A DNA stretch of 64,000 nucleotides, taken from the sequence record OR539221.1. The stretch is one strand, 5' to 3'. The notes beneath the pieces are model-generated. The model saw only the letters and a program-made list of their open reading frames with translations, did not search any database and was not told the origin of the DNA. The first letter of the stretch is position 1, and the number at the start of each line of letters is the position of its first letter. This document shows, one piece after another, positions 5,670 through 33,379 of the stretch. The position numbers and the translations under genes are program-made. Origin of the DNA: Escherichia phage vB-Eco-KMB42.

Positions 5670-7235
5670 ATGACTATCAAAACTAAAGCTGAACTTTTGA
5701 ACAAATGGAAGCCATTACTGGAAGGTGAAGGTTTACCGGAAATTGCTAATAGCAAACAAGCGATTATCGCTAAAATCTTTGAAAACCAGGAAAAAGATTT
5801 CCAGACAGCTCCGGAATATAAAGACGAAAAAATTGCTCAGGCATTCGGTTCTTTCTTAACAGAAGCTGAAATCGGTGGTGACCACGGTTACAATGCTACC
5901 AACATCGCCGCAGGTCAGACTTCTGGCGCAGTAACTCAGATTGGCCCAGCTGTTATGGGTATGGTACGTCGTGCTATTCCTAACCTGATTGCTTTCGATA
6001 TTTGCGGTGTTCAGCCGATGAACAGCCCGACTGGTCAGGTATTCGCACTGCGCGCAGTATATGGTAAAGACCCAATCGCTTCCGGCGCTAAAGAAGCATT
6101 CCACCCAATGTATGGTCCAGATGCAATGTTCTCTGGTCAGGGTGCTGCTAAGAAATTCGCTGCTTTGAAAGCAAGTGATACTCTTGAAGTCGGAACTATT
6201 TACACCCACTTCTTCCAGGACACTGGTACTGTGTATCTGCAAGCTACAGCAGCTAAACAAATTGATTCAGGTGCATCTGACGCAGACAAATTAGATGCTG
6301 AAATTAAGAAACAAATGGAAGCTGGTGTACTGGTAGAAATCGCTGAAGGTATGGCTACTTCTATCGCTGAACTTCAAGAAGGTTTTAACGGTTCTACCGA
6401 TAACCCGTGGAATGAAATGGGCTTCCGTATCGATAAACAAGTTATCGAAGCTAAATCTCGCCAGCTGAAAGCTGCTTACTCTATTGAATTAGCACAAGAC
6501 CTCCGCGCTGTTCATGGTATGGATGCTGATGCTGAACTGTCTGGTATTCTGGCTACAGAAATTATGCTGGAAATCAACCGTGAAGTTGTTGACTGGATTA
6601 ACTACTCAGCACAGGTTGGTAAATCTGGTATGACCCTGACTCCGGGTTCTAAAGCTGGTGTATTTGACTTCCAGGACCCAATCGATATTCGTGGTGCTCG
6701 CTGGGCAGGTGAATCCTTTAAAGCTCTGTTGTTCCAGATTGATAAAGAAGCAGTTGAAATCGCTCGTCAAACCGGTCGTGGTGAAGGTAACTTCATTATC
6801 GCTTCCCGTAACGTAGTTAACGTTCTGGCTTCAGTTGATACCGGCATTTCTTATGCTGCGCAAGGTCTGGCTACCGGCTTTAACACTGATACTACCAAGT
6901 CAGTATTTGCTGGTGTTCTGGGTGGTAAATACCGTGTATATATCGACCAGTATGCTAAACAGGATTATTTCACTGTAGGTTATAAAGGTCCGAACGAAAT
7001 GGATGCTGGTATTTACTACGCTCCATATGTAGCTCTGACTCCACTGCGTGGTTCTGATCCGAAGAACTTCCAACCGGTAATGGGGTTCAAAACTCGTTAC
7101 GGTATCGGTATCAACCCATTTGCAGAATCCGCTGCTCAGGCTCCGGCTTCTCGCATTCAGAGTGGTATGCCTTCTATCCTGAACAGCCTTGGTAAGAACG
7201 CTTACTTCCGCCGTGTATATGTTAAAGGTATCTAA
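5670..7235 (+). CDS. 23: Major capsid protein gp23
   Basis: 521 aa as T4 gp23; strong RBS; gene order 22-23-24. Confidence 0.95.
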   Translation: MTIKTKAELLNKWKPLLEGEGLPEIANSKQAIIAKIFENQEKDFQTAPEYKDEKIAQAFGSFLTEAEIGGDHGYNATNIAAGQTSGAVTQIGPAVMGMVRRAIPNLIAFDICGVQPMNSPTGQVFALRAVYGKDPIASGAKEAFHPMYGPDAMFSGQGAAKKFAALKASDTLEVGTIYTHFFQDTGTVYLQATAAKQIDSGASDADKLDAEIKKQMEAGVLVEIAEGMATSIAELQEGFNGSTDNPWNEMGFRIDKQVIEAKSRQLKAAYSIELAQDLRAVHGMDADAELSGILATEIMLEINREVVDWINYSAQVGKSGMTLTPGSKAGVFDFQDPIDIRGARWAGESFKALLFQIDKEAVEIARQTGRGEGNFIIASRNVVNVLASVDTGISYAAQGLATGFNTDTTKSVFAGVLGGKYRVYIDQYAKQDYFTVGYKGPNEMDAGIYYAPYVALTPLRGSDPKNFQPVMGFKTRYGIGINPFAESAAQAPASRIQSGMPSILNSLGKNAYFRRVYVKGI

Positions 7236-22793: not shown

Positions 22794-24851
22794 CTACATT
22801 TTGAACTTTTTAGACATTCCGTTGATGTTAACCAAAGAAGCTAAGATTTGAGAAACTTCGTTTTCCTCTTCTTTTGATTCTTCTACAAGGAATTGATTAA
22901 ATCCAGCCATTGGACGAACTTCACCAGTTTCCATCAGATGGTCGCCATCATATACTGATTCTTCTAATTGTTCAGAAGGAGAAACGATTGTACCTTCGAT
23001 TAGATACTTGTTATAAGCAGTTTCTTTCATCATGTACGTACTTACTTTATTAATCTTCAGTAAAATTCCACGCGGCAAAATAACTTCAGCTTCGGATGGA
23101 AATCCTGATAAATGACCTGGAACGATAACTTTAACTCGTTCAGCTCCTTTAATTACCATACCTACATTAGTTTCAGCGTCTTCATTCGCATATGTAGAAT
23201 GACTACCCATATGCATTAAATCTTCAGCATCAACTGAACCTTCTCCTTCACCAGAAAATACTGTTCCAGCGTCATCTAAAGCCATATAATTTTTACCATA
23301 TTCACCGAAGATATTTGGCTTGAGTGAAGTAGATACAAAGTTCTTGAAATAGAACATTTTATTTTCTATATTATGACGTAAAGTTTTAAAAGTAACTTCT
23401 TGGCCACGGTAAAGTGTAGTTCCCGGAGGAAGAACTGAACCTTTAGCAAATGCAGAATCCAACGTCTCAATGTGCTTAATAGCACGTTCCATATATTCTT
23501 CACGTGTAGAATCAGGTTTACCTAAAAGGAATGAGTTCATTTCAACATATGAATCTGCACAATAATCTTCAATTACATCAGATTCAGCCTGAGTTAATCC
23601 TTTTGGAGTTACTTCAGTGCTTGCATATTCATATGCCTGAGCAGCAGATTCATCAATTAATTTATAAATTCCATTCATTACAAATTGAATAATAGCTGTC
23701 TTTTCATCTGGTGTAGCTTTAGAACCTTTAACTAAATCATTGATAATTTTCTTAATAACATCAAAACTATTAGAAATATTAATATCAGCAAGATCACTTA
23801 AAATTTTATCAGTTTTATAATCAAAGAATTCTTTATTCTTTAAATATTCTTGAGAACCTTGATATGTTATATCGCTCTGCAGCTTGATAGATGGATCGCG
23901 TAAACGTGCATGGGCCAATGCAATATGATTTCGGAAGCTTTCGAGTTCATAATCACTAGATTTAAAACGAGAAGCACTTCTCATACCACCGATAGCTCCT
24001 TTGCTAAAGTTTGAACCAACCTGAATAACGCCAGAGTTCATTGGTCCTTCTGCTTTATATACCGGAACTTTAGATTCAAACTCTTGATATTTCTTAGCAG
24101 CGAAGCTATCACCCTGAAGTGAAGCATCAACAGTAGAATATTGAGCTTGCGCTGCTAATCGACGACTAATTTTAGTTTTCTGAATAACAGCTTGATCCGT
24201 GCGCTTATCATTTTCTAAAGCAATAGAAGCAGCAACAGCAACAGCTTTAGGAACAGCATTACCTGTTTTAACGTCTACATAAACATCACCAACCTTTGAT
24301 TCAACTTTTGTGAATAACTCGGTTGAAATAGGAGGTACACCTGGAATGTCTTCTAAATTGGCATTTTTACGGTAAACCATAATATATGCGTACTTTTTAT
24401 CATAATCCCAGATTTCCTTTAAAAGAACATATCGACCTGCTCCTTTAGTACGTACTAAACGGTCAGCAATAACTTGCATTTGACGAGCAGCGCCATTTGT
24501 TTTACTTTTTAGTACGCGGAATAAGCATGCATCAATTTTATACTGTTTCATTGTTTGAAGAGCAGTATCAAAAACAGCATTAATGACGCCAATTGGATTT
24601 CCACCCAAGTTTTTAAGCTTAACTAATGATAGTTTCTCATTAACACCTATCATTACGATATGCATCATTTTGTCGCCTGGCTTAACGTTTTTATTCGTAT
24701 CACCGCCAGAGGTGTATGTACAAAATCTAAATCCAGGAAGCACGCTTTCTTCACCGGCTTGAATAGCAAAAATTTGTGGTATTTTATGCTTAGGATTTAA
24801 GTTAACAACCGGCGCCGAAGCGCCGTCAAATAATTCTGTAATAAGTTCCAT
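22794..24851 (-). CDS. Alt-like ADP-ribosyltransferase paralog (685 aa)
   Basis: Starts MELITELFD like neighbour; shares N-terminal ~230 aa and C-terminal ART region (FYFKNFVSTSL; SEAEVILPRG; YDGDHLMETGE) with adjacent ORF. Confidence 0.8.
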   Translation of the reverse strand: MELITELFDGASAPVVNLNPKHKIPQIFAIQAGEESVLPGFRFCTYTSGGDTNKNVKPGDKMMHIVMIGVNEKLSLVKLKNLGGNPIGVINAVFDTALQTMKQYKIDACLFRVLKSKTNGAARQMQVIADRLVRTKGAGRYVLLKEIWDYDKKYAYIMVYRKNANLEDIPGVPPISTELFTKVESKVGDVYVDVKTGNAVPKAVAVAASIALENDKRTDQAVIQKTKISRRLAAQAQYSTVDASLQGDSFAAKKYQEFESKVPVYKAEGPMNSGVIQVGSNFSKGAIGGMRSASRFKSSDYELESFRNHIALAHARLRDPSIKLQSDITYQGSQEYLKNKEFFDYKTDKILSDLADINISNSFDVIKKIINDLVKGSKATPDEKTAIIQFVMNGIYKLIDESAAQAYEYASTEVTPKGLTQAESDVIEDYCADSYVEMNSFLLGKPDSTREEYMERAIKHIETLDSAFAKGSVLPPGTTLYRGQEVTFKTLRHNIENKMFYFKNFVSTSLKPNIFGEYGKNYMALDDAGTVFSGEGEGSVDAEDLMHMGSHSTYANEDAETNVGMVIKGAERVKVIVPGHLSGFPSEAEVILPRGILLKINKVSTYMMKETAYNKYLIEGTIVSPSEQLEESVYDGDHLMETGEVRPMAGFNQFLVEESKEEENEVSQILASLVNINGMSKKFKM

Positions 24852-24854
24852 GAT

Positions 24855-26948
24855 TTATCCTTGAACGAACTTGTAAGGCATGTTTGTAATATCTATGCAA
24901 GACGCAATAATTCCAAGAGATGATTCTACTTTCTGTTTAATATTTGATGAAACAAATGATGCAAAGTCAACTCTGTCTTCTATTTCAATATCACCTGTCA
25001 TTGCAACCAATTCACCAGTTTCCATTAAATGGTCTCCATCATAGATTACCGATTCGGTGAGCTCTTCCGTGGTCATAACTTCAGCTTGAATGAGTTTTGT
25101 ATTATTAGATGTTGTTCCGTCATTATTAGAAGCATCAGTTATTTTATTAACCTTGACCATCAATCCGCGTGGTAGAATAACTTCAGCTTCTGTTGCTATT
25201 CCGAGACTTCCTGGATATACAACATTAACTTTATGAGCTCCATCAATTGCCCATCCTATTTGAACTTTAACATATTCAGGATTTTCTTTATACGCTCTTA
25301 TTTCGTTTGGATTAATAGTTATTCCTTCTTCATTTTTATCAACTGTTAATTCGTTACGAGCTTCTGGTTCTAAAAGACCAATACCAGCATGTGTGATTCC
25401 AAAACGTCCAAAAATGATAGGAGTTAAAGAAGTAGATACAAAATTTCTGAAGTAGAACACTTTATTTTTAACTAACGCTTCATATATAGGAGCAGTCATA
25501 CTTTGAGCACGATAAACTGTAATGCCTTCTGGTATACGGTCACCATTTTCAAAAGCTGAATCTAAGTTATTTATAGCAGATTCAATTTCTTTTTCACTCA
25601 TTACATCGTATCGTTCTGGATTGTAACGACCTAAAAGAAGATTATTGATGTCAGTATATCCTGAACCGCAATATTCTCTAATGCCACGCTTTTGTGATGG
25701 AGTATATTTAGAACCATCGCGGGCAATAGTAATATCAATCATTGGACCAGCACCAATTCCAGAAAAACTGTAAATCATTCGTTTGAGGAATTTAGTTTTT
25801 GCTGCGTTCCAGGAATTTTTAGTTATTTCTTCCCAGACTTCATCTGGTTGTCCTTTACGATTTTTATTATGATTAGCAAGCCATTTATCTTTATAATCTT
25901 CAAAGAATTGATTTACAGCTGCTGCGTATTTCTCTAAACATTTTATTGAAGTAGTTGGTTCATTTTTAATTGCATTAAAAATTACTTCTTTAATTTTTTC
26001 TGAAACTTCACCGACTTGACTCATTGGAAAGAATTTATAATCATAGTGAAGTTCATCTGCCGTTCCTTCAGCAATAATTTTTGCTGCCTTTGTTTTAGAA
26101 GCTAATGAATTAATTCCAATTTTCATTTCTTCTGCTTCGGGAATTAAAGGTGCAGTAGCTGGTTTATTAAAATTAGCTGCTGTAGATTCATACTTCTGGA
26201 ATAATTCACTTTCAAATCTAGAAGATTCCAATGACTGACTTTGTGCAATTGCTCTACGGGAAATTTTAACTTTAACGATTACAGCTTGGTCAGAACGTTT
26301 ATCATTTTCTTGTGCAATTGATGCTGCAATTGCCTCATTTTTAGTTACTTGGGCTCCAGTATCTTTATTGATATAAACATCACCGACTTTCGATTCAACT
26401 TTAGTAAAGAGTTCAGTGCTAATTTCTGGAACTCCTGGAATGTCTTCTAGTGATACATTTTTACGATGTATAAGAATATATGCATACTTTTTATCGTAAT
26501 CCCAGAGTTCCTTAAGAAGGACGTATCTGCCACCTGAACGACTACGGATAAGTCTATCAGCAATAACTTGAATTTGTCTAGCTTGGCCAGCAGTTTTAGA
26601 CTTAAGAATACGAAGCATACAGGCATCAATTTTATATTGACGCATTGTTTGCATTGCAACAGTAAAAACTGAATTGATATAATTAATCGGGCTTGGACCA
26701 AGACCTTTTAATTTGGCAATTGAACCTTTAGCAGTTAATGTAAAAGGAACAATATGCATCATTTTATCGCCCATCTTTAAATCGCGATTAGTATCACCTC
26801 CAGATGTATAGGTACATAAACGAAAGCCTGGTTGTTCAATTGCATCATCAACATGAACTGAAAAAATTTGTGGTATTTTCTTCTTTGGATTTAAGTTTGT
26901 AATCGGAAGAGTAGTATCTTCGTCAAATAATTCTGTAATAAGTTCCAT
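24855..26948 (-). CDS. alt: ADP-ribosyltransferase Alt (697 aa)
   Basis: N-terminus MELITELFDEDTTLPITNL matches remembered T4 Alt; R-S-E ART hallmarks (FYFRNFVSTSL; ATEAEVILPRG); position between 54 and 30. Confidence 0.85.
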   Translation of the reverse strand: MELITELFDEDTTLPITNLNPKKKIPQIFSVHVDDAIEQPGFRLCTYTSGGDTNRDLKMGDKMMHIVPFTLTAKGSIAKLKGLGPSPINYINSVFTVAMQTMRQYKIDACMLRILKSKTAGQARQIQVIADRLIRSRSGGRYVLLKELWDYDKKYAYILIHRKNVSLEDIPGVPEISTELFTKVESKVGDVYINKDTGAQVTKNEAIAASIAQENDKRSDQAVIVKVKISRRAIAQSQSLESSRFESELFQKYESTAANFNKPATAPLIPEAEEMKIGINSLASKTKAAKIIAEGTADELHYDYKFFPMSQVGEVSEKIKEVIFNAIKNEPTTSIKCLEKYAAAVNQFFEDYKDKWLANHNKNRKGQPDEVWEEITKNSWNAAKTKFLKRMIYSFSGIGAGPMIDITIARDGSKYTPSQKRGIREYCGSGYTDINNLLLGRYNPERYDVMSEKEIESAINNLDSAFENGDRIPEGITVYRAQSMTAPIYEALVKNKVFYFRNFVSTSLTPIIFGRFGITHAGIGLLEPEARNELTVDKNEEGITINPNEIRAYKENPEYVKVQIGWAIDGAHKVNVVYPGSLGIATEAEVILPRGLMVKVNKITDASNNDGTTSNNTKLIQAEVMTTEELTESVIYDGDHLMETGELVAMTGDIEIEDRVDFASFVSSNIKQKVESSLGIIASCIDITNMPYKFVQG

Positions 26949-27004: not shown

Positions 27005-27190
27005 TTAATAGAGAGCTAAAAGAGTACGATATACTTCAAACTTTGGACCTTTTTCATATGGATCAAATCTTTCCGTGAATTCATCATATGCTAGTTTATC
27101 TGGGAATTCAAGAATAACCTGCGATACCGCAGTGGAAACATCTCCACCTTCTTTTTGAGCCACGACAATTGTTTCTAAGTAAGCTTTCAT
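27005..27190 (-). CDS. Hypothetical small protein
   Basis: 61-aa ORF overlapping ligase gene stop by 4 nt. Confidence 0.5.
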   Translation of the reverse strand: MKAYLETIVVAQKEGGDVSTAVSQVILEFPDKLAYDEFTERFDPYEKGPKFEVYRTLLALY

Positions 27191-28650
27191 AAACCAGTTA
27201 CCTCATGAAAATCGCCAAATACATCTTCGAACGTATTAGCTTTAGTTTTATCTTCACGTAAACGAATTGCAATTGGAAGAAATAGCTTAACGTAATCAGT
27301 ACGTCCATCTAATTTTACCCAGCCGTTGCATTCGCACTCTAGAATTTTTCCAATATAATAATTTTGGTTTTCCATAATGCGAGTACGATCAAGTTCATGC
27401 GATTTTATACCGGCTTTATCTTTTAAGCCTGAACCAGCATTTACTTTAATTTTTCCACACTCTGATTCAAGAATGAAACCACCTGCTTTAGTAGGGTCTT
27501 TACGGTGAGGATAAATTCCTACAATTTTTAAATCAACATCAATTACTTCTTTAAATTTATAAAGATTTTTTGAACGAGCATTTTCCCATAATCCATCGAT
27601 ATTTTTAAGAATAATACCTTCAAGACCTTGGTCAATATACTTTTTATAAATTACCTTAGCTTCATCTAGGTTATTTACTATCTGGTTTTCAATTAAAATT
27701 ACTTTATCATAGCCTGATGTCATTTGTTCTAGTTTAGAAAAACGTACATCATATTTTAAACGAAATGCTGGAAGACCATATATTTCTACTAATGGAACAT
27801 AGTCCCAGACCTGAAACTTCATGCATTGTGCTTCTTTTTCAGAAATGGTTCCCTTTAAAGATTTATTAGCGATTCCATTAGAAGTAGTACGTGATTCAGC
27901 TACTTCGGCGAATTCTTTAGCTTTACTAATTTCAGGATAAGCATCAAAAAGAAAATCTAGGCCTTCTGGCTCCTTTTTAACCTGCTCATGGTATACCAAT
28001 TCGCCATCAATTAACACACCTTCTGGATGAATCTGGCGAGCTTCTGCAGTCATTTTGATTAACTCTTCCTTGAGAAGATCTAATCCTAGATATTCATTAC
28101 CAGCTCGTGATAAAAGACGAACATCATCTAATTCATCACCTCTGACTTCAGCAAAGCACCGAGCTCCATCAGCTTTTAACTGGGCAAAAGCTGGAAATTT
28201 AATATTCTTATTAATGCCTTTTTCATCATAAGAACTTGCCAGCATTTGAGGTTGTTCAGGAATTAAACCTGGCCAAACTTTATTTGCAATAGATACAGAA
28301 GCACCACATTCAAGGTCTCGCATCATTACTCGACGTAATACTTCAACATCATCTTTTTTACCATCGGTGATATATCCGATTAATTCCTCAATTGCCGCAT
28401 TTCCAGTCAATTTCCGAGTAGCTAACGTGAATTCAATGAAGTCAAGCATATCGGTAAGAGTCAACATTCCAAAACTCTGGGTAGTAATACCCGGTTTAGG
28501 CCATTTCTTGATATAATACTGTAACCCACGAGAATAAGTCAGACGATATACTCGTTTAAGCAATTCATTATCTTTATTCTTTTCAAGAATTGCTTGCTTC
28601 TGCTTAGTTGAACCAATAGATGCTATTTCGTTCAGAATTTTAAGAATCAT
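27187..28650 (-). CDS. 30: ATP-dependent DNA ligase gp30
   Basis: 487 aa as T4 DNA ligase; N-terminus MILKILNEIASIGSTKQKQAILEK; adenylation motif KADGAR. Confidence 0.95.
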   Translation of the reverse strand: MILKILNEIASIGSTKQKQAILEKNKDNELLKRVYRLTYSRGLQYYIKKWPKPGITTQSFGMLTLTDMLDFIEFTLATRKLTGNAAIEELIGYITDGKKDDVEVLRRVMMRDLECGASVSIANKVWPGLIPEQPQMLASSYDEKGINKNIKFPAFAQLKADGARCFAEVRGDELDDVRLLSRAGNEYLGLDLLKEELIKMTAEARQIHPEGVLIDGELVYHEQVKKEPEGLDFLFDAYPEISKAKEFAEVAESRTTSNGIANKSLKGTISEKEAQCMKFQVWDYVPLVEIYGLPAFRLKYDVRFSKLEQMTSGYDKVILIENQIVNNLDEAKVIYKKYIDQGLEGIILKNIDGLWENARSKNLYKFKEVIDVDLKIVGIYPHRKDPTKAGGFILESECGKIKVNAGSGLKDKAGIKSHELDRTRIMENQNYYIGKILECECNGWVKLDGRTDYVKLFLPIAIRLREDKTKANTFEDVFGDFHEVTGL

Positions 28651-28916
28651 TGTTCATCCTTTAGAGTTTGGTTTACAGCTCTATTATAAATCAATTCATC
28701 ATTAAGCTCAGTCAAAGACCTGTGGTACGTGGTTCTAACTTTATTTCCTTGCATCCAGTGCTTGACGTAAATGAAACCTTGCTCTACACATTTTTTAAAA
28801 ATTCGTTCGTCTTTTTGAGCTCGGAATTCTGGATTGCATCTAAAAAATTGATTTACGTGACCGTAATCACGTGTAGTATTACCTTCATTTTCATAAATAG
28901 TGTGAACGACAAACAT
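28647..28916 (-). CDS. Hypothetical protein (30.1-like position)
   Basis: 89-aa ORF start overlapping ligase; tight packing. Confidence 0.55.
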   Translation of the reverse strand: MFVVHTIYENEGNTTRDYGHVNQFFRCNPEFRAQKDERIFKKCVEQGFIYVKHWMQGNKVRTTYHRSLTELNDELIYNRAVNQTLKDEQ

Positions 28917-29009
28917 TAGAATGCTCCTTGGAAAATATTATCACCACTAGTAGGTCTATTATACAAATACTCTATGCCACCGGGTTTAATATAGTTCCAT
29001 GTCTGAAAC

Positions 29010-29119
29010 GGATGCGTCTGATATGGATGATATAGATTATAAGGATTAAATCCAGGAGTTCTCCGGATGCGTCTGATATGGATGATATAGATTATAAGGA
29101 TTAAATCCAGGAGTTCTCC
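29010..29119. repeat. Perfect 55-bp direct tandem duplication (2 copies: 29010-29064 and 29065-29119)
   Basis: Identical 55-mer ggatgcgtctgatatggatgatatagattataaggattaaatccaggagttctcc repeated head-to-tail. Confidence 0.95.
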
Positions 29120-29807
29120 AGGTAGTGTTCCAAGGAAAAGAATCATTTTTAATCATCTTTTCAATTACATCTTTTATAGCTTTTTCACTATCAAAACTTT
29201 CTTTATTTTCATTCGATGGAAAAAGCTTATTCTCTACATCATTCCATGTATAAACTCGCTGTGCAGTTTTTGGAATACTGTCACGCTCCCCTCGAGCCAT
29301 CCAATAAACAGGAACATTTAATATTTCACTCGCATGATCGCAGTGGTGAGCGAGATCGTCAATATAACAAATTACGTTATATTTCTCTTTTGCCTTTTTG
29401 AACAACTCTTCTTTTGAAGAATCATGACCACACATCAATACTTCTGAGAAGGCACCAGGAAAAAGAGCATTCAAATTAAATTGACGATTCAGCAGAGCGT
29501 CAATAGAATCACCCAGTGCTGTAACAGCTACAAAATTATAATCTTCTTTTAATTTGTTAATTACACACAGGGCATCTTTATATGGAGACAAATAGCGAAT
29601 AAAATCTGAACGATTATACTTTTCGATTAATTTAACACCAAGTTCTTCATCGCAATTAAAGAGCTTACCAGGAGAAATAAATTTTTCGTCCTGAATCATT
29701 TTTAAAATATGTTCCAACGGAAGATTATATTTTTGGGCAAAATAAGGAAGGCCCGATTGCCAGCTTAAACACACCCCGTCAATATCAGTCAAAATAGTAG
29801 GCTTCAT
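29046..29807 (-). CDS. HAD-superfamily hydrolase-like protein (30.2-like), C-terminus disrupted by the 55-bp duplication
   Basis: 253 aa; N-terminal LTDIDGV (HAD motif I-like) and later YIDD; ORF ends inside tandem repeat; downstream remnant ORF 28916-29146 repeats RTPGFNPYNLYHPYQTHP in a shifted frame. Confidence 0.65.
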   Translation of the reverse strand: MKPTILTDIDGVCLSWQSGLPYFAQKYNLPLEHILKMIQDEKFISPGKLFNCDEELGVKLIEKYNRSDFIRYLSPYKDALCVINKLKEDYNFVAVTALGDSIDALLNRQFNLNALFPGAFSEVLMCGHDSSKEELFKKAKEKYNVICYIDDLAHHCDHASEILNVPVYWMARGERDSIPKTAQRVYTWNDVENKLFPSNENKESFDSEKAIKDVIEKMIKNDSFPWNTTWRTPGFNPYNLYHPYQTHPENSWI

Positions 29808-30268
29808 AGAGAGTCTCTTAATAGGTTTAACACATCAATAAATTCAGCTTCGGTTAGTATTGTATCATCTTTTGTTAGACCACTAGCCATGCTATGCTTC
29901 AAAATTTTTCCTTTAGAGGCTTGTAAGGCATCACGAAACCCCTTGTTTTGAATCGCTGCTTCAAAATATGCATTTGTATACAACTCTTTCCATGCTACAG
30001 AGTATCTTGAAAAGGGAATTCCAAGCCAGAAAAGCGTCCCACGGTCCGCAGCTCTTGCATAAGCTCTTCCACTTTGCTGGGCGGCCAAGCCGGAGAGCCC
30101 AAATATACGTTTTTGTTGTTCAACATTTTTCACCTTGCATCCTTGGAGGAATCCTTCAAGACCTCCGAATTGAATACCATCCATGACGAAAGGCCATTGG
30201 GCGAAATTACTTAATGCACACGATGGCCATCTAAAATTGCTTCTAATCTCTAACTCAGACATTTTCAA
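29804..30268 (-). CDS. NADAR/YbiA-like (DUF1768-type) domain protein (30.3-like position)
   Basis: 154 aa; N-terminal pattern LSNFAQWPFVMDGIQFGGLEGFLQGCK resembles the SNF..P...DG....E..FQ..K signature of YbiA/NADAR proteins (from memory, not searched). Confidence 0.6.
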   Translation of the reverse strand: MKMSELEIRSNFRWPSCALSNFAQWPFVMDGIQFGGLEGFLQGCKVKNVEQQKRIFGLSGLAAQQSGRAYARAADRGTLFWLGIPFSRYSVAWKELYTNAYFEAAIQNKGFRDALQASKGKILKHSMASGLTKDDTILTEAEFIDVLNLLRDSL

Positions 30269-30461
30269 TACTTATAATTTCAACATCAGCCCAATGACCA
30301 TAGCAAGGAAGACGAAATTCAACTGGCCAGTTAGGGTCCTTTTCTAATATAATAGACTCAACTTGTGGTTCTTCATGTTCATCAGTATATGGATTTTTAT
30401 CTGTTACTTTATATGTGACCTTAATGTACTGAATTCCAAAAATCTTATTAATTATATTCAT
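30255..30461 (-). CDS. Hypothetical small protein
   Basis: 68-aa ORF in tightly packed co-directional cluster. Confidence 0.5.
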   Translation of the reverse strand: MNIINKIFGIQYIKVTYKVTDKNPYTDEHEEPQVESIILEKDPNWPVEFRLPCYGHWADVEIISIENV

Positions 30462-30655
30462 ACTAATTCCTTTAATCCGTAAATAGGAGACAATTCATCA
30501 CCCATACGAAGGTCTTCATTTCCATCTACCCAGGAAACAATATAAGCCTCTTTTATTTGAACACCACTCCATTTAAATGGAGGTAGAACCTTAGAAATTA
30601 ATCCAGGTATACCAACTCCCTTTAATTCAACAGTTTGACCTAAAAAGAATTTCAT
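30458..30655 (-). CDS. Hypothetical small protein
   Basis: 65-aa ORF, 4-nt overlaps with neighbours. Confidence 0.5.
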   Translation of the reverse strand: MKFFLGQTVELKGVGIPGLISKVLPPFKWSGVQIKEAYIVSWVDGNEDLRMGDELSPIYGLKELV

Positions 30656-30942
30656 TAGAACCTCATCTGAAAACCATGCGATTTAACATTACCGCCGCCA
30701 ATATCAGAAATATTAATTTCACGCGCAATTGAAGGGTCAATGTCAATTTCACGATTAAGTTTAGCGATAGCTAAAGTATCACGCCCATTTACTGTACGGA
30801 ATTCTAAAGGACAAACCACATCAACGTAATTTTTAATCGATTCACTGGTAGGCTGCAAATGAGCAGGAAGGTCTTTAGGTGCCTTTGAGAAAACCACTTC
30901 ACAAAAATTTTTGCGGGTGTCAAAATAAGTAGTCATAAACAT
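30655..30942 (-). CDS. Hypothetical protein
   Basis: 95-aa ORF; RBS GAGG upstream. Confidence 0.55.
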   Translation of the reverse strand: MFMTTYFDTRKNFCEVVFSKAPKDLPAHLQPTSESIKNYVDVVCPLEFRTVNGRDTLAIAKLNREIDIDPSIAREINISDIGGGNVKSHGFQMRF

Positions 30943-30983
30943 AATATTTTCCTCAGTAAGGGGCCGAAGCCCCTCATTTTATT

Positions 30984-31349
30984 TTAAATATCAAATTCGT
31001 TAAGAACTACATCAAAGATTGCTTCAAGATGCTCAGGTTTAGCTCTGTTACTCAGAATATGACGAATCCAAGTTTTAACCAAAAGCTTGCGATTATCACC
31101 ATTCCAGCAAGGATGAGTCCCTAAATCGCGTTGACGAAAATCATCATCTAAAGCGATTTTAAAATTTGAACCTTCCATTGTGATTGAAACCGTGATGCCA
31201 TTTTCAAATCGCATATAAACGTAGTTAGGAGTCATATACTGTTCAATTTCGCATACTGATCCATTTTGATGTTTCCAAAGGCAAATAGTATCAATAGAAC
31301 CTGCAATACCATTAGAAACATATTTACGTTCAAAGTTGATGTAGTTCAT
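30984..31349 (-). CDS. Hypothetical protein
   Basis: 121-aa ORF. Confidence 0.55.
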   Translation of the reverse strand: MNYINFERKYVSNGIAGSIDTICLWKHQNGSVCEIEQYMTPNYVYMRFENGITVSITMEGSNFKIALDDDFRQRDLGTHPCWNGDNRKLLVKTWIRHILSNRAKPEHLEAIFDVVLNEFDI

Positions 31350-31417
31350 TTTTGTTCTCCGAGATGTTTAATTGCGGTACAGGTATATAATATCATATCC
31401 TGTACCAAAGTAAACAA

Positions 31418-31750
31418 TTATTTTACTACTTTCCAGTGCTTCATGTCAAGTTTACCGACTTTTTTCATCTTCTCAATTAAGCGTTCGGCACGTTGGCGAG
31501 CTGTAACATAATACCATTCACCTAATTCATTTTGTTCAATTTTTCCAACGATTACTGTATTCAATTCATAAATCCAACCAGTAAAGAAATTATGAACTTG
31601 AATTGTAAAGGTGAAATCTGTTCCCATACCTTCTGTTGTTTCTACTTCAATAATATCACCTTCAACTGCCATTAAGAACCACATAGTTTCGTTATATTCA
31701 CCATTGAAGCATTTAGCTTTAACTGCAGCGTTCAGATTAATCGTTTTCAT
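31418..31750 (-). CDS. Hypothetical protein
   Basis: 110-aa ORF with GGAG RBS, downstream of predicted early promoter. Confidence 0.55.
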   Translation of the reverse strand: MKTINLNAAVKAKCFNGEYNETMWFLMAVEGDIIEVETTEGMGTDFTFTIQVHNFFTGWIYELNTVIVGKIEQNELGEWYYVTARQRAERLIEKMKKVGKLDMKHWKVVK

Positions 31751-31777
31751 TTTATTCTCCTTTGTTTGTGTAAGATA

Positions 31778-31807
31778 ATACTATCACAAAGGAACCATAC
31801 TGTAAAC
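31778..31807 (-). promoter_or_regulatory. Putative early promoter
   Basis: Minus strand GTTTAC - 18 nt - TAGTAT upstream of ORF 31418-31750. Confidence 0.4.
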
Positions 31808-31825
31808 AACTTTATGCAATCTTTG

Positions 31826-31856
31826 GAAAATAAAAAAGGACTCCCGAAGGAGTCCT
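31826..31856 (-). terminator. Rho-independent terminator
   Basis: Minus strand AGGACUCC-UUCG-GGAGUCCU followed by UUUUUUAUUUU. Confidence 0.65.
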
Positions 31857-31860
31857 CAAC

Positions 31861-32037
31861 TTATGCTTTCTGCTTACCAAAACGAGAAGCATCATCTCGA
31901 AGAACCGCACGTGCTCGGCGCATGATCTTCTCAACAGTTTGATTGATACGAGAGTTCGACCCACGCTTGTAGCCAGCGCGTTTAGAATCACCAACTTTCT
32001 TTTCAACTGCTTTCTTTGCTTTAGCTTGTTTTGCCAT
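31861..32037 (-). CDS. Small highly basic protein (58 aa from ATG at 32037)
   Basis: ORF track gives 72 aa from 32079; internal ATG MAKQAKAKKAVEKK... is K/R-rich; followed by strong terminator. Confidence 0.5.
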   Translation of the reverse strand: MAKQAKAKKAVEKKVGDSKRAGYKRGSNSRINQTVEKIMRRARAVLRDDASRFGKQKA

Positions 32038-32282
32038 TATAAATTCTCTTTTAAATGAAAATGCAGGACTTATTGGCATTGCCTGCGCAAGCCCTCAAGG
32101 GGAACATAGGTTTTTGGGTATTTAACGACCAGGATAACCATAAACCCGTCATCATTCACATTCAAGAGGTACACCATAAAACTGCCGGGGTCTTAAAACT
32201 ATAATGATTCGCAAATCATTAATCAGACAGTTCGATGGCTCCTCGATTTTAGCTCACACTAAGGCAGTGAATCTCCAATAAA

Positions 32283-32531
32283 TTACTTCAATGTTACCAC
32301 AAAGTGACGAACTGCTTTTCGTGCAGCAGAAGCCAGAGGCTTAGCATACTTAAGTTCATCTTTTTCCTGAAGCTCAGCAGCTAATGCAGTTTGAGCAGGA
32401 TTTAGATGTTTGAAATAACGCAGGATTTCAAGAGCTTCGGCTTCAACATCAATAGATGCGCCATAGTTTTCGTGACCATTATTCCATGCGTTTCGTTGCA
32501 GTTCAAGAGCGTGTTGTAATTGTTTAATCAT
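32283..32531 (-). CDS. rIII: Lysis inhibition accessory protein rIII
   Basis: 82 aa as T4 rIII; position adjacent to gene 31. Confidence 0.85.
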   Translation of the reverse strand: MIKQLQHALELQRNAWNNGHENYGASIDVEAEALEILRYFKHLNPAQTALAAELQEKDELKYAKPLASAARKAVRHFVVTLK

Positions 32532-32678
32532 TTAAAAATTCTCGTTAGAGATTAAAACTCGGTAGTCACGTTCTTCTGAATTTCATCTTCTTTCGACAGA
32601 TCTCTCAGTTGTAGACTACCACATAGAATTGTTCGGTTAACTTATTATTCCGACACCCAATTCATATTATTATTTATA

Positions 32679-33014
32679 TCACTTATAAAGACATGGAATA
32701 GCTTTATAGTGGCAAGTGACGAATTTTTGTTTAATTTCTTTTGGCTGCTTAAGACCCAGAGCTACAAAAGGATGCGGAACATTTCGAATTTGACCAACTG
32801 GAAGAGAAGTCAAATCACCAACTTCGCAGAAACCTTCAGGAACATCAGGACCAACAGAGTGAACTACACACAGTTCAGGAACTTCACCTTGAACACGTTT
32901 ACCGATAATAAGTCCTGATTCTGTAACTTCTTCATCACCAGCCTGTGCAGGTTCAGAAACTAAAATAACATATTCACCGACAGCACGAATTGGTAGCTGT
33001 TGTACTTCAGACAT
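32679..33014 (-). CDS. 31: Co-chaperonin gp31 (GroES analogue for capsid folding)
   Basis: 111 aa as T4 gp31; N-terminus [22 protein letters not shown]. Confidence 0.9.
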
Positions 33015-33044
33015 CGTTTTTCCTTTTTGTTAACAGATGAATTA

Positions 33045-33071
33045 ATAATAACAAATAATTCTTAAAGCATT
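33045..33071 (-). promoter_or_regulatory. Putative MotA-dependent middle promoter for gene 31
   Basis: Minus strand aaTGCTTTA - 12 nt - TATTAT upstream of gene 31. Confidence 0.4.
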
Positions 33072-33379
33072 TATTTACCAATAAATTGAAGCAAATGCTC
33101 AACTTTCATACCATTAACAGAAATCAATTTGCCAATAGAAAAACCTCGCCATGCGCCAAGTTCAACATCAAATACTGGAATCATGTCAGTAGATTCTTTC
33201 CGAGTAGATTCAGTCAATTTACCAGTTTGCATGGTTGGCATAAAGTCTGCATCACGAGTACCTTTCATAGTACGAATAGTACCATCAGACTTTTCAAAAA
33301 CTACGTTTGAAACACCCATGGACAATTTGGTTTTCAAAATTTCGCGAATTGCTACTTTCTGCTCAGTTGTCAGTTTCAT
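33071..33379 (-). CDS. Hypothetical protein (31.1-like position)
   Basis: 102-aa ORF. Confidence 0.55.
   Translation of the reverse strand: MKLTTEQKVAIREILKTKLSMGVSNVVFEKSDGTIRTMKGTRDADFMPTMQTGKLTESTRKESTDMIPVFDVELGAWRGFSIGKLISVNGMKVEHLLQFIGK

Follow-up and report, generated by a model that had tools for sequence, protein, structure and literature searches.

NADAR proteins hydrolyse the guanine-N2-ADP-ribose that DarT1 forms (Schuller et al., Mol Cell 2023, PMC11543638), and an E. coli phage member of the group, gp30.3, removes guanosine-ADPr, not thymidine-ADPr, in vitro (Cihlova et al., Toxins 2024, PMC11125620). In T-even phages, resistance to DarTG1 has been mapped by phage crosses to gene 30.3, renamed adfN for anti-DarT factor NADAR (Johannesman, Carlson & LeRoux, bioRxiv 2024, PMC11257639; Nat Commun 2025;16:1598, PMC11825919). 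Deletion of adfN from T4 or T2 leads to a ~10^4-fold sensitivity to DarTG1, DNA modified by DarT1 loses its ADP-ribose upon treatment with purified AdfN, and the protein neither binds DarT1 nor counters DarTG2 (PMC11257639, PMC11825919). Phage RB69 is sensitive to DarTG1 because of a frameshift in its own gene 30.3 and is rescued by ectopic AdfN, a rescue that the substitutions E36A and K43A abolish (PMC11257639, PMC11825919). The specificity of the enzyme is for the guanine-ADP-ribose of DarT1, not the thymidine-ADP-ribose of DarT2, with no protein substrates known (PMC11825919, PMC11125620). It should be added that outside infection AdfN fails to protect E. coli against DarT1 (PMC11257639, PMC11125620), which leaves its specificity in vivo only partly explained.

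In the mechanism of this system, the DarT1 toxin of an infected DarTG1 cell places ADP-ribose on the N2 amino group of guanine in single-stranded phage DNA and thereby blocks phage replication; AdfN then hydrolyses the guanine-ADP-ribose bond by means of Glu36, Lys43 and His123, restoring DNA that can be replicated. A small single-domain enzyme with the NADAR fold, AdfN is a clear case of a phage-borne “orphan antitoxin” whose enzymatic action reverses a DNA modification introduced by host defense. The NADARs of the Bas32/Bas60 type are likewise phage-encoded and directed against DarTG1, but they were acquired independently, belong to other NADAR branches, are active on unmodified DNA and neutralise DarT1 without infection; T4 AdfN, in contrast, works mainly in the hydroxymethylated-DNA context of T-even phages. 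The feature described below is already known, having been characterised experimentally for T4, T2 and relatives in 2023–2025, and the window analysed here, a stretch of 64,000 nucleotides from Escherichia phage vB-Eco-KMB42 (OR539221.1), contributes one further, near-identical adfN allele.

The adfN gene of the window

An open reading frame of 154 codons with a TTG start occupies positions 29804..30268 on the minus strand. The initial annotation had proposed it as a 154-aa NADAR/YbiA-like protein, giving no strand; the frame is real and represents the orthologue of T4 gene 30.3 (AdfN) in this T4-like phage. Its product aligns with T4 gp30.3 free of gaps and through residue 152, with 144 of 152 residues identical (95%). 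The eight differences, written with the window residue first (K51R, S64A, A67S, A72Q, I82V, V89P, I120V and M125I), all fall outside the invariant columns and the catalytic positions of an alignment of 90 full-length homologues, which were taken from a search of 5.8 billion proteins where 105 protein clusters match the window protein. Pfam family PF08010 (“Phage_30_3”) is matched with E=1.6e-67 and a score of 226 bits, where the gathering cutoff is 36, residues 11–150 covering profile positions 1–138 of 138, and the protein also matches PHROG 652, which carries the annotation “unknown function”. Matches to the region are found in 726 phage records, almost all of the Tequatrovirus type, including Escherichia phage vb_EcoM_bov9_1 with 99.9% identity. 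Gene order across 22.8–33 kb (two Alt paralogues, alt.1, ligase gp30, 30.1, 30.2, 30.3, 30.4–30.9, rIII and gp31) agrees with the T4 annotation, adfN being placed between 30.2 and 30.4 in both.

The coding sequence of adfN, encoding the NADAR-fold DNA ADP-ribosylglycohydrolase, is best delimited as 29804..30262 (minus strand; 152 aa and a stop). The ATG at 30262-30260, two codons downstream of the TTG at 30268, yields a product of the length annotated for T4 gp30.3 and overlaps the TGA stop (30257-30255) of the upstream gene 30.4, which occupies 30255..30461; this start region (30255..30262, minus strand) reads ATGTCTGA. The same 8-nt overlap is present in the T4 annotation, where 30.3 spans 128307..128765 and 30.4 spans 128758..128964. 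The ATG is therefore the more likely start, and the TTG, taken as the start in the ORF list, probably does not serve as one. At its other end the gene is joined to gene 30.2 by an ATGA read directly from the sequence (29804..29807, minus strand), in which the adfN stop overlaps the start of the downstream frame, as is typical of genes whose translation is coupled. A scan of 28500..33200 for promoters and terminators returned 21, near the chance level set by shuffling (15±3.9).

Inside adfN, out of frame, lies the equivalent of T4 30.3' (29995-30126, minus strand), with 43 codons in the window versus 75 in T4, and with 13 aa in L018. Of 12 close relatives, 7 have ACG, ATT or ATC in place of its ATG. 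Given this shortening and the frequent replacement of the start codon, 30.3' does not behave as a conserved gene and, on these sequence grounds, is probably not a real one.

Neighbouring genes and the idea of a functional module

Two genes encoding Alt-type ADP-ribosyltransferases lie about 2.9 kb downstream of adfN on the same (minus) strand, one at 22794..24851 (685 aa) and the other at 24855..26948 (697 aa), and both match PF03496. The two paralogues stand in tandem and are of full length in the window, whereas T4 has a single alt together with the short remnants alt.-1 and alt.-2; in some relatives (L009 and L010) the second paralogue is 98% conserved. The neighbouring equivalent of alt.1 (27005-27190, minus strand, 61 aa) matches PF24647 “Phage blade protein”, a family recently added to Pfam, with E=6.8e-28.

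Adjoining adfN on its downstream side, gene 30.2 (29046..29807, minus strand) appears in the window as an ORF of 253 aa, and its product is annotated as “hypothetical” everywhere. Pfam gives sub-threshold matches only (HAD_2, 0.051; NT5C, 0.074), and a profile built from eight homologues retrieved nothing beyond noise or sub-threshold matches from PDB sequences and Pfam, so that structure prediction and Foldseek were needed for the assignment. The AlphaFold2 model (pLDDT 87) has 102 PDB matches at E≤1e-3, with 5'(3')-deoxyribonucleotidases (2jao, E=9.3e-8) and other HAD hydrolases at the top. Invariant positions among 49 homologues are D8, D10 and K132, and at least 90% keep T96 and D151; the D8-x-D10 pair corresponds to the N-terminal DxD nucleophile motif of the Rossmann-like HAD fold. 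By its modelled fold, gp30.2 is thus a HAD-superfamily protein closest to 5'(3')-deoxyribonucleotidases, for which a role as a nucleotide phosphatase is plausible.

The window copy of gene 30.2 carries a perfect tandem duplication of 55 bp (minus strand, 29009-29063 identical to 29064-29118). The duplication shifts the reading frame after residue 248, so that the final 30 codons fall in a different ORF, of 76 aa (28916..29146); removal of one copy restores 278 codons whose product is nearly identical to T4 gp30.2. The junction is contiguous in none of the matches listed from a search of 50,697 phage records, each listed match being split in two. The duplication has arisen either as a mutation private to this genome or during assembly.

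The presence of two ADP-ribosyltransferases, a possible ADP-ribose-processing enzyme and an adjacent HAD-like phosphohydrolase had suggested, in the initial annotation, a writer/eraser or counter-defense module. The components are indeed there, both Alt genes matching PF03496 and gp30.2 having a HAD fold, and what fails is the functional linkage between them. Co-location was surveyed in 86 loci with a 30.3 homologue (80 viral and 6 metagenomic) by tblastn over 8 kb on each side, with gp30.2, ligase, Alt, 30.1, 30.4–30.7 and gp31 as queries. Within 8 kb, Alt is found in about 19 of these 86 loci and gp30.2 in roughly 25, of which nearly all share the block that extends from ligase to gene 31; roughly 19 close T4-like loci hold all the surveyed neighbours together. 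A few more distant T4-like genomes have gp30.2 and ligase without Alt, gp30.2 standing beside the ligase gene at 0.7–1.2 kb from NADAR, and one further locus, which lacks ligase, has just a 26% match to gp30.2. In about 60 loci, whose homologues are 37–44% identical, none of the surveyed neighbour genes was found within 8 kb, and the genes flanking NADAR in two distant lineages bear no relation to gp30.2. Since co-location is confined to T4-like synteny, the proximity of adfN, Alt and gp30.2 is to be read from its distribution as inherited gene order of the T4 type and not as a functional unit.

These observations bear on two related proposals about what else the protein may do. According to the first, T-even AdfN would also have a second class of substrates tied to Alt, ModA or ModB, or would act together with gp30.2 in clearing released ADP-ribose or damaged nucleotides; nothing in the present data speaks in support of it, and it appears very unlikely. 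The second proposal assigns to AdfN the reversal of ADP-ribosylation or RNAylation carried out by the phage's own Alt paralogues or by ModA/ModB, by which the modification of host proteins would be tuned or recycled, possibly with the participation of the HAD-like gp30.2. The two PF03496 genes on the same strand and the ATGA junction with a gene for a deoxyribonucleotidase-like HAD fold would fit such a role. Alt modifies arginine in proteins, whereas guanine-ADPr is the reported substrate of the NADARs that have been assayed. Moreover, the linkage is a matter of T4-type synteny and is absent from the about 60 loci with distant homologues, which have neither Alt nor gp30.2, the window copy of 30.2 is itself frameshifted by the 55-bp duplication, and the phenotype of the T4 adfN deletion is reported only on DarTG1 hosts (PMC11257639). 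Such a writer/eraser function, with or without gp30.2, is accordingly considered highly improbable, and the DarT1-directed activity of AdfN is retained as the preferred reading.

NADAR fold, catalytic residues and predicted activity

The assignment of the window protein to the NADAR superfamily goes back to a motif, LSNFAQWPFVMDGIQFGGLEGFLQGCK, quoted in the initial annotation and found at residues 17–43 (152-aa numbering). A direct search with the PF08719 (NADAR) HMM, which had been named there as the first check, gives no match for the window protein even at E≤1 (hmmscan), and phmmer against all PDB sequences returns nothing at E≤10. Among the 90 homologues, 35 match PF08719, the best with E=1.5e-7, and both Pfam labels, PF08010 and PF08719, occur on one cluster among the matches. 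A profile of the 90 homologues, run against PDB sequences, aligns the motif region to residues 29–83 of E. coli YbiA (FSNFAAWPIKVDGKTWPTSEHYFQAQK) with a marginal E-value of 0.014. The AlphaFold2 model built on the homologue alignment has a mean pLDDT of 93.1 and a pTM of 0.88, and its three leading Foldseek matches in the PDB are YbiA (2b3w, E=3.7e-5), the Phytophthora NADAR in complex with ADP-ribose (8bau) and the Geobacter lovleyi NADAR (8bat), all matches beyond these three having E>1. The fold comparison that had been suggested alongside the HMM search has therefore returned a NADAR fold with YbiA at its head.

As fold and catalytic residues agree and 35 of the 90 relatives do match PF08719, the failure of the window protein to match that model is not taken as a refutation. 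It is a consequence of how Pfam partitions the superfamily, the phage branch being kept apart as PF08010, and is no sign that the fold differs; used alone, the PF08719 test would for just this reason have led to the dismissal of an idea that was right. On the strength of its fold, its catalytic residues and the transitive links in sequence, the window protein is a member of the NADAR superfamily and belongs to its phage (His-type) branch, and the NADAR/YbiA-like assignment made from the motif was correct. The methodological lesson is that remote homology proposed from a motif resemblance was confirmed only by fold comparison together with checks of catalytic residues.

Three positions are of particular importance for the function. 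Glu36 (codon GAA, 30155..30157, minus strand), equivalent to E43 of PnNADAR, is invariant in the 90 homologues, and Lys43 (codon AAG, 30134..30136, minus strand), equivalent to PnNADAR K50, is kept in at least 90% of them. The lysine at this position coordinates phosphate (Schuller et al., 2023, PMC11543638), and in T4 AdfN E36A and K43A each cause loss of function (PMC11257639). The third residue, His123 (codon CAT, 29894..29896, minus strand), is invariant in all 90 homologues and is located in the modelled strand 120–123, the last beta-strand of the AlphaFold2 model. The residue in this strand serves as a subfamily marker, being Glu in YbiA-type proteins, Asp in the DarT1-associated BC4488 type and His in phage gp30.3 (PMC11125620, PMC11543638). 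The window protein accordingly lacks both the Glu of the YbiA type and the Asp of the BC4488 type.

The antitoxins of the DarG1/BC4488 type, represented by the Geobacter lovleyi NADAR (8bat) and the E. coli C7 NADAR, are 14% identical to the window protein, have the last-strand Asp and are encoded beside darT1. The window protein, in contrast, has His123 and is a phage orphan, with 30.2 and 30.4 as its neighbours and no toxin gene in the surrounding T4-type block; T4 AdfN, for its part, cannot take over the antitoxin role of DarG1 when cells are not infected. The YbiA-type proteins, E. coli YbiA (2b3w) and the P. nicotianae NADAR (8bau), are about 20% identical to the window protein, match PF08719, have Glu in the last strand and belong to another biological context, whereas the window protein has His and no PF08719 match. 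Closest by far is T4 AdfN itself, which shares with the window protein the length of 152 aa, 95% identity, the slot between 30.2 and 30.4, E36, K43 and a full-length C-terminal helix, and differs from it in the eight substitutions outside conserved columns.

The rank of E. coli YbiA among the structural matches raises the question of a metabolic function. In such a reading the protein would be a YbiA-type N-glycosidase acting on intermediates of the riboflavin pathway or on free metabolites derived from NAD or ADP-ribose, rather than on DNA. Besides the leading Foldseek match, it could draw on the label “YbiA (DUF1768 family)” given by JGI to some metagenomic homologues and on the proposal that the YbiA family comprises N-glycosidases of riboflavin biosynthesis (cited in PMC11125620). 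The Glu that defines that subfamily is, however, replaced here by an invariant His, ADP-ribosylated DNA is a substrate of the T4 orthologue, whose anti-DarTG1 phenotype is clear, and even YbiA itself hydrolyses guanosine-ADPr in vitro (PMC11125620). A metabolic role of the YbiA type is consequently extremely improbable.

The C-terminal part of the protein deserves separate mention, as the frameshift in RB69 gene 30.3 removes the last 15 residues and leaves the protein non-functional (PMC11257639). In the window the last 14 codons and the stop (29804..29848, minus strand) encode the C-terminal end of helix 138–151, which is intact and modelled at high confidence. A decayed allele, which would make the phage dependent on another factor such as AdfA, has a natural loss-of-function precedent in RB69 (PMC11257639) and would sit in a genome that is not free of lesions, as the duplication in the adjoining 30.2 indicates, but it is barely credible with the frame intact to residue 152, the three catalytic residues and the C-terminal helix present and the 8 substitutions relative to T4 outside invariant columns.

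Because E36, K43, H123 and the C-terminal helix are all present and the eight differences avoid invariant columns, the window allele is very probably an AdfN with the same anti-DarTG1 mechanism as the T4 protein. Orthology, fold, key residues, C-terminus and synteny come from the window, while activity, specificity and the necessity and sufficiency against DarTG1 come from the T4 protein, and it is from the two together that we infer equal behaviour of the allele. The suggestion that the protein reverses ADP-ribosylation and counters DarT-type toxins, made for nucleic acid and protein substrates alike, thus holds for DNA, as established with the 95% identical T4 orthologue, and does not extend to ADP-ribosylated thymidine, nor are protein substrates known (PMC11825919, PMC11125620).

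Distant homologues in large phage-like contigs

Beyond the T4-like phages, distant NADAR homologues matching PF08010 (37% identity) are encountered in very large phage-like contigs amid small unannotated genes. Some of these contigs exceed 300 kb and resemble those of jumbo phages; in one of them, an ENA contig of 308 kb (L002), the homologue is located at 6001-6468, whereas L005 is a contig of 82 kb. No DarT-like, Alt-like or gp30.2-like gene adjoins NADAR in the distant large contigs (L002–L005). A gene of 254 aa directly following NADAR in the 308-kb contig is of the size of gp30.2 and was considered as a candidate counterpart; it proved unrelated (BLASTP E=1.2) and has no PHROG match. A NUDIX hydrolase gene is found within about 4 kb of NADAR in L002–L004, accompanied in L002 and L004 by a Thg1-like gene; SprT-like genes and one resembling PRPP synthetase lie near NADAR in L005.
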